Positions 2,001 to 46,328 of a stretch of DNA of 64,000 nt are shown here, in pieces. The stretch is from Patescibacteria group bacterium (lineage in GTDB: Bacteria > Patescibacteriota > Patescibacteriia > Magasanikbacterales > GWA2-37-8). The notes under the pieces are model-generated. The model made no database searches. It saw nothing but the letters and a program-made list of their open reading frames with translations, and was not told the origin of the DNA. The stretch spans positions 1,010 to 65,009 of the forward strand of contig JBAZKA010000004.1 in the NCBI GenBank assembly GCA_041651015.1, in the 5' to 3' direction. Position 1 is the first letter of the stretch; each line of letters begins with the position of its first letter. Both the position numbers and the translations under genes were made by a program.

Positions 2001-5000
2001 TTGTAATAATTATCAGCGGTGACACTGATGCTGCCATCAACAACTAATTTTTCATTTGGTGTGGTGGTGCCGATGCCGACGTTGCCGGACACGGCAACAG
2101 CAAGGTAATCCGTACCACCAAAGCCACCACTATCAATTTTAAAAGCGTAATTATCATCGGCGTCTATACCGGTTGCGAATGATTGGCTCGCCGGCCTGTT
2201 GTAATAAAGAATCTCAGCATGACCACTCGCATTATCTTGCCGTAGATATACCATTGGCGCTCCATTGCTCGCATCGTTCTCATACACCCCGAAGTCGGTT
2301 TCCGTGGCGCCAGATGCTGAAGAAGTGCCAACATGGATACCATTCAAAAACGCGGATTTGCCTGATGACATAATTCTTGTCGGCGGAGAGTTGGGGTCAG
2401 AGGCGCTTGTACCAAGAGCGATGAAGCCAATATAATTTCCACTATTATTTAAATTGCCGATAAACGCGGTTTGCGTAGCACCGGCAAACAAAGAAATGCC
2501 GTTTATAGATGAAACCGAGGCTGAAACGTCAATCGCCAATCTGACTGAGGGAGTAGAAGTGCCAATCCCCAGCCGATTATTTGTATCATCCCAAAAGAAA
2601 TTGGAATTGTCTTGCGTTAATTTTCCACTGGATGATGCAAAGACCACTGAGCCGACGGTCAGGCCGCCCGTATCGGTTGCTAAAATTCCCAGCGACGAAG
2701 TGGATACCCAATTCGGCGCAGATGCGCCGTTTGATTGCAAAACGTATCCTAATGTACCGGCATTGCCATTAGTTCGTAATGCGCCGGACAAATTCATGTC
2801 GCCGGAAATTGATAACGGATATGATGGCGTGGTGGTATTGATACCAACATTGCCACCGAGAAGAGCGATGGTATTATTTTGAGAGATAGTTTTTGATGTG
2901 GAAGAAACATTTACACCAAAAGAATTATTACCATTGACGGTCAAATTTTGCCCGAACGCGGCGCTGTTGCTGCCGCCGGCAACAGTTAAATTACCAAATG
3001 CAACGCTATAAGTCCCGCTCGCGTATGTGCCATAACCAAAAGCCGCACTGGCTTCGCCGCTGGCTGTCACACCATTTCCAAAAACCGCGCCATATTGTCC
3101 ACTCACGATATTCCCCCAACCACCGCCGGCAAAACCGGCGGAAACATTAACAGTATTATAACCGCCGCCGGCGACAAAAGAGTAAAAGCCACTAGCTTTG
3201 TTTGCCCAACCAGCGGCAAAAGCATCGGTGCCGCTGTAAACTTCATTATTATAACCAAAAGCGGCCCCGCGGGTGCTGGACACAATATTCCCCTCGCCAA
3301 AAGCAACACCGTTCGTACCAGGAACGTTATTTTCATAGCCAAAAGCGCTGGAATAGTTTCCATTGACAGTATTATTTTCACCAAATATAACTGTGGCTCG
3401 ACCCGCGAGATTATTGCCGGCACCACCGACCACACTGGCAAAGGCGGTACTGGACACATTATTATTGGAACCAAAAACCGCGGAATAATCAGCGCCATAA
3501 CTTGTGGATGCGGCAACATCATTACCAGTACCAGAAACTAATGCACCGGTGGAATATACATTGTTAAGGACGCCAAAAACCGTATCGCCCCACCCGGACT
3601 CTGTATTCCCTTCGCCGGCGACAAAAGAATATGTGCCAAACACAAAGTTGTCGGCACCAAACGCCGCTGAATACTCGCCGATATTTGCATCATCCCAGTC
3701 GTCTCCGGTGACAGTCCCTGCTCTAAACGCCGATTTCTCGGGATACCACATCATCCTTGTGCCCGCGCCCTCAACTTGAAGCGCGTTGCCGTCGTCGAAT
3801 GTACCAGCGGCGACGATTGCGCCGGTTCCACCGACATAAAGTTGCGCTAAAGGATTTGTGCTATCAATACCAATTTCACCGTCGTCATCCATAAATAAAA
3901 TTCCCGTACCGGTGCTGTTAAAAATCCCAAAAGAATCATCACTGTTGATATTTAAATCAACGTAATTATTTGTATCATAGCCCATCCTCATAGCCTTGCC
4001 TGATTCATACAACGAAGTCGGGGTCATGATCGGCGAAGTCAACCAGTTATCACCGTTGTTGTCAGTATAAGCATTTGTGGCGACATCTTTGTAAACATTA
4101 TAACTAAAAGGGTTGGAGGTATCATATTTTAATACACGATAACCGGTCGCCCCGTCCACCGCATCCCATGTCCACTCAAGCCTGTAGAGGTTTGACGAAC
4201 CGTTGTCGGTCCAATTACTGGAAAGATTATCGTATGACGATGAGTAAACTCTGCCTGCTGTCGTGTCCTTGAAGGCATAAACGCGCAAGTTGTGCGAATA
4301 ACTATTCGCCGTATAATACTGCTTTGAGGCATACACCGCACTGACTTGCACATTTGATGGAGTACCGACAGTAATCAACGCACCAGCCCCGGTTACTACC
4401 TGAATTTTACCGGCCGGCGTGGTGGTGCCCACGCCGATTGAACCACCATTAAAAATTCCATTGCCGCTGATTCTAAATCCGGCCACTTGATCAGCGCTTG
4501 TTTGATTTTGAATATAATTATTTGAACCCGATGAAGAAGCAAAACCGAGTGACGAAGTGGATACCCATGCCGGCGCAGATGTTCCGTTTGACTGTAAAAT
4601 ATGTCCGGCTGTGCCGGCGTTGCCGTTGATCCGTAATGCGCCAGACAAATTCATGTCGCCGGATACGGTCAAAGGAAAACTGGGAGTGGTCGTGCCCACG
4701 CCAACATTGCCCCCAAGAAGAGCAATCGTGTTTGGTTGCGAAATTATTTGCGCAGTGGAAGATACATTGACGCCAAACGAACCTTCTCCGCTCACAGTTA
4801 AATATTGCCCGAAAGCCGTCGTATAATTACCAGATACTTCGTTGTATATACCGCCGCCCACAAATGAATAATAACCAGTTGAGGTGTTGTACATGCCACC
4901 TCCAATAAAACTGGAGATACCATCATTATAATTAGACTCGCCACCTCCGATAAAACCACTGATACCACTATTAGTATTGTTTTCACCGCCGCCGATAAAA

Positions 5001-7583: not shown

Positions 7584-7691
7584 GTTCATAAAGTTATAAA
7601 GTTTTTAAAGTTTGTAAAGTAAAAAATCTCCCGTTTCCACGGAAGACTTTTGTCTGCTTTATAACTTTATGAACTTTATAACTTTATGAAC
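7584..7691. repeat. AT-rich inverted repeat built from AACTTTATAA/TTATAAAGTT units, between the giant-gene start and the trxA stop
   Basis: Left arm gttcataaagttataaagtttttaaagtttgtaaagt (7584-7620). Right arm ctttataactttatgaactttataactttatgaac (7667-7691) is its reverse complement. Right arm overlaps the trxA stop codon. Confidence 0.55.
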
Positions 7692-8010
7692 TAAGACATC
7701 GGTCAATCATCTCCATTAATTTTTCCTTCTGCAATCCCCCGTTTAATGTATCAACCGGCGCGCCATTCTTAAAAACAATAAATGTCGGCACGCTCATCAC
7801 TTCCCACTTGCCCGCCACCTCCATATTTTCATCCACGTTTAATTTTCCAATTTTAATATTCTTGCCTTCATAATCCTTGGCCAGCTCATCCACAATCGGA
7901 CCCATCATCTGACACGGCCCGCACCACGGCGCCCAAAAATCCACCAAGACCGGCACGTCGGATTTCAAAACTTCGGCTTCAAAATTAGAATCAGTAAAAA
8001 CTTTTTCCAT
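7684..8010 (-). CDS. trxA: Thioredoxin
   Basis: 108 aa, WCGPC active-site motif, typical thioredoxin length and sequence. Confidence 0.9.
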   Translation of the reverse strand: MEKVFTDSNFEAEVLKSDVPVLVDFWAPWCGPCQMMGPIVDELAKDYEGKNIKIGKLNVDENMEVAGKWEVMSVPTFIVFKNGAPVDTLNGGLQKEKLMEMIDRCLSS

Positions 8011-8024
8011 AAGTAAATAATTAT

Positions 8025-8105
8025 GTACGAAATACGAAAGCTACGAAACTTACAAAAATGTTTTCATTACACGTTCGTATATTTCGCAGTTTTCGTATTT
8101 CGTAC
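8025..8105. repeat. Solo (empty) copy of the TACGAAA-heptamer inverted-repeat element (MITE-like)
   Basis: gtacgaaatacgaaagctacgaaa (8025-8048) and tttcgcagttttcgtatttcgtac (8082-8105) are near-perfect reverse complements with ~33 bp between them. The same arms flank the GxxExxY gene at 44932-45422. Confidence 0.5.
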
Positions 8106-8106
8106 A

Positions 8107-10125
8107 TTAACTTAAAACTAATTTTTTTTCTTTTTTCTCTTCTTTGTACGCTTCCAAAACATCGCCAACTTCCACATGCAACTTACCCTCATACTGCATA
8201 CCGCATTCGGTTCCTTCCGGCACTTCGTTCACATCCTGTTTGCTCATTTGTAATTTAAAAATTTTACCCGCACCAATTACCTCGCCGGCGCGTTTTACGC
8301 GAACCTTAGCGTCTTTTTGCAATTTTCCCTTTTCGGCCCGGCCGCCCAAAATCATTAAATTTTTCTCGGTGCGGAAAATCGCCATGACTTTAAAATTACC
8401 CAGCTCGGTGACAATCACTTCAGGATTCAAAAGTTTTTCCAATTCGTCTTTAACAAAATTTAATAAGTCGTAAATAATTTTGTATGGTTTAAAATTTACA
8501 CCGCGCGTCACAATCATTTCACTGGCGATGGAAGTCGGCGAAACGTTGAAGCCAAACAAAATTCCTTTGGTCGTTTCCGCGAGAGCCACATCATCCGGGC
8601 TGACATTACCCAAACCCTTGCCTACGACTTTGACCGACACTTCATCATTTTTTAATTTTTCCAGTGAGCCGATAATCGCTTCCAATGAACCGAGAGTATC
8701 GGCTTTCACCACCACATTCAAATATTTTTTCGGTTCATCGGGATTATCATTATTGGTTGAAGAAACCGGGCGTTGCTCAGCGCCGGATTGTTGCGTGCGT
8801 TTGGATTTCAGGTCAATTTGCGTTGCGCTGCCCGCTCCGCCCACGTCCAACACATCGCCGACTTGCGGAGCGACTTTGAAACCCAAAATTCTGATTGGTG
8901 AACTCGGTCCGGCTTCGGTCAAATTTTCTCCGCGATAATTTTTCATGGCCCGGACTTTGCCGTAAATTTCTCCGTTTACCACCAAGGCATCGTTTAATTT
9001 TAGAGTACCGGTCTGCACCAAAATCGTGGCCACCGGGCCTTCACCCTTGTCCACGTGCGCTTCAATCACCGTGCCCGCGGCCGCGCGATTAGGCTCGGCT
9101 TTGATGTCGGCTTCGTGCATATCAGCGAGCAAAAGCAAAGTATCCAATAGTTTATCAATATGTAAATTCTGTTTGGCGGAAATTTCCACCATTGGCACTT
9201 CTCCGCCCCATTCATCGGAAATAATTCCGTGCTGGGAAAGTTCGGTGCGCACACGCATGGCATCAGCGCCTTCTTTGTCAATTTTATTTATAGCCACGAT
9301 CACCGGCAATTTAGCCGCTTTGATAATATTGATCGCCTCCACGGTCTGCGGTTTCACGCCATCATCAGCTGCCACCACCAGGATGGCGATGTCCGCCACT
9401 TTGGCGCCTCGGCTGCGCATAACGGTAAAGGCCTCGTGGCCCGGAGTATCAATAAAAGTAATGGCGCGTTTTTCTTTGTTCTTCGGATCAGTCCAAATAG
9501 TTTGGTACGCGCCGATGTGCTGAGTAATACCACCGGCTTCGGTGTCAATAATATTTGCGTTTCTAACCGCATCCAATAATTTTGTCTTGCCATGGTCAAC
9601 GTGGCCCATGACTATGATGACCGGCGCGCGCATGGTGGTTTTTTCCGAAAGAATTTTTTCCAAATTTTGTGTGTGGGTTTGGTCTGTGTTTTGCGGAGCG
9701 GCTCCCTCGGCAATCGCCTCCACGGTAAAGCCCAAATCCTCGGCAATAATCGCGGCCGTGTCTCGATCCAGAAATTCATTCATGGAAACAAGAATGCCGT
9801 TTTTCATCAATTCCACAATTAATTTATTGAGCGGAACATTCAAAACATTGGATAAATCTTTGACCGTGATACGCCCGGGAATTTTAACCGTCGCCCCGCT
9901 CTGACGGCGAGCTTCTTTTTCCAGTTCTTTTTGTTTTTCCCGTTCCTTTTTTTCCCGATCTTCCAAGACGAATTTTATCCGGCGCCATTCGCGTTGAATT
10001 TGCTGAGCCACACGGTCATCAATCTTTACGGCGCGGGCGCCAAAATCAAAACCAAACTCGGGCAATATTTGCAGAAGTTTTTGCGGGTGGACTCGGAGCT
10101 GGCGGGCAAGGTCGGTGACGTTCAT
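8107..10125 (-). CDS. infB: Translation initiation factor IF-2
   Basis: 672 aa. GTP-binding domain (GHVDHGKT, DTPGH, NKID) and the IF-2 C-terminal beta-barrel. Confidence 0.95.
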   Translation of the reverse strand: MNVTDLARQLRVHPQKLLQILPEFGFDFGARAVKIDDRVAQQIQREWRRIKFVLEDREKKEREKQKELEKEARRQSGATVKIPGRITVKDLSNVLNVPLNKLIVELMKNGILVSMNEFLDRDTAAIIAEDLGFTVEAIAEGAAPQNTDQTHTQNLEKILSEKTTMRAPVIIVMGHVDHGKTKLLDAVRNANIIDTEAGGITQHIGAYQTIWTDPKNKEKRAITFIDTPGHEAFTVMRSRGAKVADIAILVVAADDGVKPQTVEAINIIKAAKLPVIVAINKIDKEGADAMRVRTELSQHGIISDEWGGEVPMVEISAKQNLHIDKLLDTLLLLADMHEADIKAEPNRAAAGTVIEAHVDKGEGPVATILVQTGTLKLNDALVVNGEIYGKVRAMKNYRGENLTEAGPSSPIRILGFKVAPQVGDVLDVGGAGSATQIDLKSKRTQQSGAEQRPVSSTNNDNPDEPKKYLNVVVKADTLGSLEAIIGSLEKLKNDEVSVKVVGKGLGNVSPDDVALAETTKGILFGFNVSPTSIASEMIVTRGVNFKPYKIIYDLLNFVKDELEKLLNPEVIVTELGNFKVMAIFRTEKNLMILGGRAEKGKLQKDAKVRVKRAGEVIGAGKIFKLQMSKQDVNEVPEGTECGMQYEGKLHVEVGDVLEAYKEEKKEKKLVLS

Positions 10126-44358: not shown

Positions 44359-44925
44359 ATGACTGTAGTTTATATCATCATTGGTGTTTTGGCAATAGTC
44401 GCCATTTGGTTGATTGCCACGTATAATGGCTTAATTAAAAGCAAAAATCAGGTGGATGAAGCCTTTTCAGATATTGACGTTCAATTGAAACGCCGTTATG
44501 ACTTAATTCCCAATTTGGTGGAAACAGTCAAGGGCTATATGACCCACGAGCAAGGCACTTTGGTCAAATTGACCGAAGCCCGCGCCTCGGCCATGCAGGT
44601 CCACGATAATAAAAACGCCACCCTGGCCGAACGCGAGGCCGCAGAAAATACTTTATCCGGAACTTTGAAATCTTTATTTGCGGTGACGGAAAATTATCCA
44701 GACCTCAAAGCCAGCCAAAATTTCTTGCAATTGCAGGATGAAATTTCCGACACGGAAAATAAAATTCAGGCTTCACGCCGATTTTACAATGGTAATGTTC
44801 GCGATTTCAACACCAAAATTCAGGTCTTCCCCACCAACATGATTGCCAACTCGCTCAAATTTGTGAAATACGATTTCTTTCAGGCGGCCGACGGCGAAAA
44901 GCAAAACGTGCAGGTGAAATTCTAA
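44359..44925 (+). CDS. lemA: LemA family protein
   Basis: N-terminal TM then NGLIKSKNQVDEAFSDIDVQLKRRYDLIPNLV, the LemA signature. Confidence 0.85.
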   Translation: MTVVYIIIGVLAIVAIWLIATYNGLIKSKNQVDEAFSDIDVQLKRRYDLIPNLVETVKGYMTHEQGTLVKLTEARASAMQVHDNKNATLAEREAAENTLSGTLKSLFAVTENYPDLKASQNFLQLQDEISDTENKIQASRRFYNGNVRDFNTKIQVFPTNMIANSLKFVKYDFFQAADGEKQNVQVKF

Positions 44926-44931
44926 TATAAT

Positions 44932-45422
44932 GTACGAAATACGAAAGCTACGAAAAGTACGAAAAAATAAATTCAAATTATGGAGGGGCAACATCAATTA
45001 AGACGCATGGATTTATTATATCCGGACTTATCTTATATAATTAACGGAATTTTATTTAGTGTCTATAGACAACTTGGCGGCGGTCACAAAGAATCATATT
45101 ACCAAAAAGCCGTCGCTACTGCTTTACGGGACAAGGGCATTAAATTTGTTGAACAATACTATGTTCCGCTTAAATATAACAATCAGATCGTTGGAAAATA
45201 TTACTTGGACTTTTTGATTGAAGATAAAATAGTATTGGAATTAAAACGAGGAAAATATCTCGTGGCAAAAGTAATTGATCAAACAAATCAATATTTAAAA
45301 ACTCTTAATCTCCAACTCGCAATTATCGCCTGTTTTACCTACACAGGAGTTACTCCAAAAAGAATAATAAATATAAATAATCATTAACTTTCGTAATTTT
45401 CGTAGCTTTCGTATTTCGCACA
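44932..45422. mobile_element. Inverted-repeat-bounded cassette carrying a GxxExxY nuclease-like gene, filling the lemA-htpX intergenic space
   Basis: Left arm gtacgaaatacgaaagctacgaaaagtacgaaa (44932-44964). Right arm tttcgtaattttcgtagctttcgtatttcgcac (45390-45422) is its near-perfect reverse complement. Same arms occur empty at 8025-8105. Confidence 0.45.
44980..45387 (+). CDS. GxxExxY family protein (PD-(D/E)XK nuclease superfamily)
   Basis: QLGGGHKESYYQKAVATAL contains the family-defining G-x-x-E-x-x-Y motif. About 130 aa, typical size. Later ...YLDFLIEDKIVLELKRGK fits a PD-(D/E)XK core (D...E.K). Confidence 0.6.
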   Translation: MEGQHQLRRMDLLYPDLSYIINGILFSVYRQLGGGHKESYYQKAVATALRDKGIKFVEQYYVPLKYNNQIVGKYYLDFLIEDKIVLELKRGKYLVAKVIDQTNQYLKTLNLQLAIIACFTYTGVTPKRIININNH

Positions 45423-45428
45423 TAAAAT

Positions 45429-46328
45429 ATGTACTCTGAAATTTCCTCCAACAAAAGAAAATCAGTTTTGCTCGCGTGTATTTTTATCGCCATCATTATT
45501 TTCCTCGGCTGGATTTTTGACTATATTTATGGCGGGGGGCAAAGCTATAGCGGTATGATTTTTGCGATTCTTATCGCCCTTGTCATGACCATGATCTCAT
45601 ATTTTTCCGGAGACAAAATCGCTCTGGCCACGACCGGCGCCAAAGAAATTCAGCACGACGATAATAAATATTTATTTCACCTGGTGGAGAATCTTTGTAT
45701 CACCGCCGGCACGCCCATGCCGAAAATTTATGTAATTAATGACCCGGCCATAAACGCTTTTGCCACGGGGCGCGACCCCAAACACGCGTCCATCGCCGTA
45801 ACCGCGGGTGCTCTGCAAAAATTAACCAACGAAGAACTGGAAGGCGTAATTGCCCACGAATTATCCCATGTCAAAAATTATGACATCCGTTTTATGATGC
45901 TGGTCGCGGTTATGGTCGGGGCCATTTCCATTTTCGCCGACATCATGCTCCGCTCGGGCGGAATTTTCCGCGGCGGACGTGACAATGACCGCGAAGGCGG
46001 GTCGTCGCTTTTCGCGATTCTCATGATTGTCGGGATTATCCTCGCAATTTTGTCGCCAGTAATCGCTGAATTGATCAAACTGGCCATTTCGCGCAAACGC
46101 GAATATCTGGCCGATGCGTCGGGCGCTCTGCTCACCCGCTATCCCGAAGGGCTGGCCAGTGCTTTGCAAAAAATCGGCGATGAGAATCAGCCGATGAAAA
46201 AATCTTCTTCAGCCACGGCGCATTTATTTATTGCCAGCCCGTTTAGCGGAAAAAAATTAAAGAGTATATTTTCCACCCATCCACCCATTGAAGATAGGAT
46301 AAATAAATTACGGATGATGGGGAATTAA
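45429..46328 (+). CDS. htpX: Zinc metalloprotease HtpX (M48)
   Basis: HELSHVKNYD HExxH motif, multiple TM helices, C-terminal FSTHPPIEDRI. Confidence 0.9.
   Translation: MYSEISSNKRKSVLLACIFIAIIIFLGWIFDYIYGGGQSYSGMIFAILIALVMTMISYFSGDKIALATTGAKEIQHDDNKYLFHLVENLCITAGTPMPKIYVINDPAINAFATGRDPKHASIAVTAGALQKLTNEELEGVIAHELSHVKNYDIRFMMLVAVMVGAISIFADIMLRSGGIFRGGRDNDREGGSSLFAILMIVGIILAILSPVIAELIKLAISRKREYLADASGALLTRYPEGLASALQKIGDENQPMKKSSSATAHLFIASPFSGKKLKSIFSTHPPIEDRINKLRMMGN

Follow-up and report, generated by a model that had tools for sequence, protein, structure and literature searches.

A dispersed palindromic element between infB and trxA in a Patescibacteria genome and its link to a GxxExxY gene of the PD-(D/E)XK family

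The infB-trxA palindrome and the GxxExxY cassette

The sequence analyzed, termed the window, is a 64,000 nt stretch of contig JBAZKA010000004.1 from a Patescibacteria group bacterium. The genes infB and trxA are separated by 96 nt (positions 8011–8106) and a near-palindrome of 85 nt fills most of this gap. Its last base (8107) is shared with the infB stop codon, and its other end is 12 nt from the trxA ATG. A second locus in the window, between lemA and an M48/HtpX-type peptidase gene, has related arms that enclose a GxxExxY gene. The features of the two loci are as follows.

7684–8010 (-), trxA (PF00085, 3.8e-33; TIGR01068, 6.5e-35)
8023–8107 (no strand assigned), gene-less palindromic element, 85 nt
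8023–8061 (+), left arm: ATG, TACGAAA (8026–8032), TACGAAA (8033–8039), GC, TACGAAA (8042–8048), CT and a degenerate TACAAAA (8051–8057)
8069–8107 (-), right arm, read on the minus strand: ATG, TACGAAA, TACGAAA, AC, TGCGAAA, TA, TACGAAC; base 8107 is also the first base of the infB stop codon complement
8107–10125 (-), infB (TIGR00487, 1.2e-177)
44359–44925 (+), lemA (PF04011, 8.4e-60)
44930–45423 (+), full-length element of 494 nt: arm, GxxExxY gene, arm
44930–44965 (+), left arm of the full copy, with four TACGAAA units at 44933, 44940, 44949 and 44958
44980–45387 (+), GxxExxY/PDDEXK_3 gene, 135 aa
45388–45423 (-), right arm of the full copy: TTTCGTA at 45389, 45398 and 45407, TTTCGCA at 45414, then CAT
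45429–46328 (+), M48/HtpX-type peptidase gene (PF01435, 3.8e-32)

The palindrome reads ATGTACGAAATACGAAAGCTACGAAACTTACAAAAATGT, a loop of TTTCATT, and ACACGTTCGTATATTTCGCAGTTTTCGTATTTCGTACAT. A search for inverted repeats gives arms of 39 nt that are 82% complementary with a 7 nt loop, and the outer 20 bp are perfectly paired. A preliminary description had given arms of ~24 nt with about 33 bp between them; the arms are longer than this, and the 33 bp are mostly paired. The element folds at -21.8 kcal/mol as single-stranded DNA (z -6.4) and at -44.2 kcal/mol as RNA of the infB-sense strand (z -8.3). It contains no ORF.

The inverted repeat of the second locus (44925–44964 and 45389–45428) consists of arms of 40 nt that are 90% complementary and 424 nt apart. 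The first 26 nt of the infB-trxA palindrome (8023–8048) are identical to positions 44930–44955 in the left arm of this cassette. The 14-mer TACGAAATACGAAA, with up to 2 mismatches allowed, occurs only at these four arms in 64 kb (4 hits against 1.0 expected), and the heptamer count elsewhere in the window is at expectation. A 26/26 match cannot be chance or A/T-rich low complexity. The preliminary description of the palindrome as a cargo-less copy of the element that flanks the GxxExxY gene is therefore supported.

Insertion at the infB-trxA junction and dispersal of the family

Orthologous infB-trxA junctions were obtained from other assemblies by means of InfB relatives. Loci from public sequences are numbered here with the prefix L. 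The gaps, with InfB identity to the window, are as follows.

L155 (98%): the contig ends 19 nt past the stop codon, in yet another sequence
L150/L151 (97%): 6 nt (TAA TTTTTT ATG), empty
L152 (94%): 162 nt (3517–3678), a G+C-rich palindrome (GTCATTGCGAGGAGCG...)
L156 (94%): the same palindrome (3517–3554) as in L153; the contig ends inside it
L153 (93%): 94 nt (3520–3613), a different palindrome (GTCATCCCCGAC...GGGAATGACA)
L154 (80%): 38 nt, no element

The window palindrome is thus a lineage-specific insertion into a spacer that was once about 6 nt long. This spacer is a hot spot that several unrelated palindrome families have colonised independently. Two other palindromic families occupy the infB-trxA and lemA-htpX spacers in close relatives, one reading TGTCATTGCGAGGAGCG...CGCAATGACA and the other GTCATCCCCGAC...GGGAATGACA, and similar sequences follow solo TACGAAA arms in L018, L071 and L073. 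Several MITE-like families appear to compete for the same tiny spacers.

A scan of species-representative genomes with the exact 23-mer gave 15 loci having the same architecture. These are in Magasanikbacteria/Patescibacteria MAGs and in MAGs titled 'uncultured Gammaproteobacteria bacterium' (L001, L003–L005, L007, L008, L012–L014; binchicken/co-assembly TPA records). In L008 and L012 the latter also have the rseP-lemA-GxxExxY-htpX gene order, with LemA 74–80% identical to that of the window, and the taxonomic label looks wrong. A 17-mer scan of metagenomes also returned about 64 termini without further repeats, including a conserved coding sequence (CAGATGTACGAAATACGAAATGTTCGA...), and these were filtered out as chance hits. 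The resulting catalogue holds 32 hairpins (30 unique), about 30 solo arms, five gene-bearing copies of 490–560 nt and a few intermediates; with further loci, at least 10 gene-bearing copies were found. Almost all copies are in Magasanikbacteria/Patescibacteria. The 17-mer gave 11 loci in viral contigs, but eight share one near-identical coding context, three are isolated 17-mers with no further repeat, and none has the arm architecture. A protein-pattern scan with alignment A1 found no relative.

Each arm is an array of usually four (T)ACGAAA heptamers ending in ATGTAC. In the 30 unique gene-less copies, 48 of 60 arms have four CGAA cores spaced 7, 9 and 8–9 nt apart, and the element length is 70–98 nt (median 84). 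Of 22 hairpins with both neighboring genes called, 21 lie between co-directional genes, usually 2–12 nt from each ORF. Flanks are 75–80% A+T with a weak AATT preference (12 of 94). No direct repeat representing a target-site duplication flanks any of the 32 hairpins; the terminal AT...AT is part of the inverted repeat. Solo arms have no partner within 6 kb and abut ordinary housekeeping genes. Their outer (ATGTAC) end faces the 3' end of an upstream gene in 20 of 27 cases, often 0–4 nt after its stop codon (e.g., L007 4919, L050 2574, L073 3018, L076 311), a bias that is unexplained. In L021 (~240), L026 (1471–1600 and 3772–3860), L062 (~120) and L133 (3850–3960), solo arms are directly followed, and in L026 also preceded, by arrays of a different short unit (GTGATAG/GTGATAA/GTGACAA). 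In L026 this unit has an inverted partner (GTCACCTGTCACTTAT), and it may represent another heptamer-array family.

Recent activity is visible on contig Ga0172379_10000368 and its ENA twin (L065/L146), where three near-identical 78 nt hairpins fill three consecutive intergenic gaps of a PrgI/TraC/VirB4-like operon. At least 4 hairpins are present on one 14-kb stretch (L065). A GxxExxY gene lies between the three hairpins, preceded by a whole hairpin and followed by a single arm. The same T4SS-like operon has a gene for a 23S_rRNA_IVP (PF05635) four-helix bundle (L146 6170–6417), another small gene type often regarded as selfish.

Association of the arms with the GxxExxY gene

The ORF at 44980–45387 scores above the curated cut-offs of PF13366 PDDEXK_3 (9.4e-26; 90.9 bits against 22) and TIGR04256 GxxExxY (1.4e-24; 86.7 bits against 35). 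A homologue search returned more than 230 orthologues with 55–84% identity, nearly all from Magasanikbacteria/Patescibacteria. Residues D77, E87, K89, Q101 and Y105 are invariant in 118 of them, and the D77-E87-x-K89 core is intact. The AlphaFold2 model is confident (pLDDT 90.9) and predicts a minimal PD-(D/E)XK core with no close solved relative. The best matches are Cas4 SSO0001, lambda-exonuclease-like proteins, MGME1 and Hjc (TM 0.4–0.57), as well as the tRNA-splicing endonuclease.

All ten gene-bearing copies of this clade that were examined are bracketed by heptamer arrays, and the unit changes together with the nuclease lineage. It is TACGAAA in the window, L008, L012, L074, L132 and L146; TACGAAT in L148, which has a 36 nt perfect inverted repeat, and in L157; TACGAAC/TACGAAA in L159; and TACAAAA in L158. 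A paralogue of only 42% identity (L133) also has a TACGAAT array upstream, and a gene-less hairpin of the TACGAAT type is present in L017. The inner halves of the two arms of one element are no more alike than arms of different elements (3328 of 5000 permutations reach the observed score), i.e., there is no compensatory pairing beyond the shared motif. Selection therefore acts on the repeated unit and not on exact pairing, which fits a protein-binding array better than a structural RNA or DNA stem.

The cassette lies between lemA and the M48 peptidase gene in the window, L008, L012, L157 and L159, which could be taken as a vertically inherited master copy. Two results weaken this reading. The closest relatives (LemA 97% identical; L165–L167) have no cassette at this position, and their 129 nt gap (2133–2261 in L165) is filled by the GTCATTGCGAGGAGCG-type palindrome. 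The host genes of L157 and L159 are 71–73% identical, yet their GxxExxY proteins are only 56% identical and carry different units. The slot is therefore recurrently occupied, with turnover, and other copies lie in unrelated contexts. In L012 (3264–3960) the right arm is tandemly duplicated, and a HicB-like (UPF0150) plus HicA toxin-antitoxin pair is inserted after a truncated htpX 5' end, followed by a second copy of the arm end and the htpX start. The M48 peptidase gene starts with ATGTAC, the same hexamer as the element terminus (window 45424–45434; L008 4590–4605; L157 1962–1976), and in L008 the junction reads GTACAT|ATGTAC, a perfect 12 nt palindrome. This may hint at a preferred target half-site, or it may be coincidence.

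A tblastn search against plasmids found four distant GxxExxY genes. In Gemmatirosa kalamazoonensis (Gemmatimonadota; strain listed as KBS708 in the plasmid record) the gene (PF13366, 2.9e-34) is followed 78 nt downstream by a hairpin whose arms are three units of NNCGCGGAT, an unrelated sequence of the CGCGGAT type (L163 817–889). This dispersed hairpin, with 3–4 units per arm (L163 817–889; L164 1201–1273), has 7 and 10 places on the two megaplasmids (NZ_CP007129.1 and NZ_CP007130.1), and one place that was inspected is gene-less and lies between convergent host genes. At roughly one copy per 125 kb, the probability of a chance copy within 100 nt of the gene is estimated at about 0.002. The Treponema gene has a 16 nt flanking inverted repeat, the Fusobacteria gene has direct repeats, and the Persicobacter gene has only loosely repeated flanks. 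The paralogue in L118 has no flanking repeat. The association is therefore frequent but not universal across PF13366.

Possible mobilisation by GxxExxY and comparison with known systems

These properties suggest that the infB-trxA palindrome is a non-autonomous, REPIN/MITE-like member of a family of small mobile elements, the full-length form of which carries the GxxExxY gene. That it is a mobile derivative of the GxxExxY cassette is highly likely. That GxxExxY is the mobilising enzyme is inferred and remains tentative, and the explanation as a whole, as a compromise between the two, is considered probable. GxxExxY protomers may bind the heptamer arrays on both arms, and the conserved D-ExK active site may cut at or near the ATGTAC termini, perhaps on an extruded hairpin or cruciform. 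Gene-less copies would thereby be mobilised in trans, with host repair or ligation completing insertion into AT-rich spacers without a target-site duplication. However, no transposition chemistry is known for a stand-alone 135-aa PD-(D/E)XK protein, which can cut but not join DNA, and no target-site duplication or defined target was found.

It is possible, although less likely, that another host or element enzyme moves the hairpins and that GxxExxY is a selfish passenger, e.g., a homing-type nuclease gene that lodges between the arms or in hairpin loops. In L009 (2621–3169), TACGAAA arms enclose a 136-aa DUF559/Vsr-like endonuclease gene (PF04480, 2.8e-34) in place of GxxExxY, and this gene carries its own G+C-rich inverted repeat (CCTCCCCTGTTAGGGGAGGGCAGGGTGGGG / CCCCACCCTGCCCTCCCCTAATAGGGGAGG). 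A gene between the arms can therefore be a secondary insertion, and the L009 locus represents a nested selfish nuclease cassette. On the other hand, the heptamer variant tracks the GxxExxY lineage on both arms, no other candidate gene was found between or beside the arms, and the pairing of gene and heptamer hairpin appears with an unrelated sequence in Gemmatimonadota.

A role for the host at the RNA level, as an infB terminator or attenuator, an RNase III processing site or a 3'-end stabiliser as E. coli REP sequences can be, is unlikely, although the infB-sense stem is very stable and the hairpins lie mostly between co-directional genes. The preliminary description had suggested a terminator or an effect on trxA transcription, but this has no support. 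No terminator-like site is present in 7600–8500; there is no G+C-rich stem with a T-run, the stem base is A/U-rich and the tail reads AAUUAUUUACUU. A close relative has a 6 nt gap and does without the hairpin, so infB and trxA are evidently co-transcribed, and unrelated palindromes occupy the gap in other relatives. The sense strand folds better in 14 copies and the antisense strand in 14 (Wilcoxon p 0.78), arm-to-arm compensation is absent, and Rfam gives only plant miRNA-precursor models at 19–35 bits against gathering scores of 72–211. An incidental effect on the mRNA, such as that of a long dsRNA stem, cannot be excluded without RNA data, but any effect on infB/trxA expression would be a by-product. 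Arrays of 3–5 short direct repeats are also typical of protein-binding sites, but an operator-like site for a regulator of the enclosed gene is very unlikely. Copies lie next to unrelated housekeeping genes (infB/trxA and, identified by eye from translations, ORFs that read like ribosomal protein L2, UvrA, TrmD and aminoacyl-tRNA synthetases), in either orientation, and are present or absent among close relatives. A regulon would not behave this way.

Functionally the family looks most like REP/REPIN elements and their RAYT (TnpA-REP) genes in Proteobacteria, and in form like a MITE. As in REP/RAYT systems, gene-less hairpins are dispersed in intergenic spacers, often inside operons, one gene is flanked by inverted copies of the repeat, the repeat is specific to the protein lineage, there is no target-site duplication, and some copies persist at one chromosomal slot (rseP-lemA-[gene]-htpX in five genomes). 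However, the only Pfam hit of the enclosed ORF is PF13366 and not an HUH/Y1 enzyme of the IS200/IS605 type, the arms are arrays of four heptamers and not one imperfect palindrome with a conserved GTAG head, and occupancy of the slot turns over. Bacterial MITEs (e.g., Correia/NEMIS, RUP, ERIC-type elements) share the small size, terminal inverted repeats, many copies, a longer relative with the same ends, insertion polymorphism and an intergenic, co-transcribed location, but here there is no target-site duplication and the only gene of the longer relative is that of a PD-(D/E)XK nuclease with no shown transposase activity. Transposon ends with multiple binding sites (Tn7 TnsB sites, Mu L1-L3/R1-R3) and foldback elements also have arrays of short direct repeats in inverted orientation at the two ends, which is the reason to read the heptamers as protein-binding units. 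There is no homology to these, the units are only 7 nt with 7–9 nt spacing, and the whole element is 85 nt. Free-standing homing-endonuclease-like genes (DUF559/Vsr-like genes, PD-(D/E)XK I-Ssp6803I) are likewise small selfish nuclease genes wedged into intergenic spacers, but homing targets one cognate site and leaves no dispersed gene-less palindromes, while the copies here lie at many unrelated sites.

No prior description of GxxExxY function or of these heptamer-array palindromes was found in the literature searched, which did not cover subscription journals, and a 2012 survey of PD-(D/E)XK proteins lists PF13366 as 'Unknown' (PMC3424549). For annotation, these hairpins should be flagged as repeats and not as terminators or small RNAs. 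A tentative further possibility is that GxxExxY proteins, a large family with no known function, are the enzymes of a second REP/RAYT-like system, mechanistically distinct from the known one, in which a minimal PD-(D/E)XK nuclease recognises lineage-specific heptamer arrays and spreads gene-less hairpins through compact genomes. It would operate in at least two phyla, Patescibacteria with TACGAAA-type units and Gemmatimonadota with CGCGGAT units. If the link is causal, it gives a first functional lead for this widespread protein family and would add a nuclease-based counterpart to the HUH-based REP/RAYT system. It would also explain part of the intergenic repeat content of streamlined Patescibacteria genomes, where even 6 nt operon spacers are colonised by several competing palindrome families.
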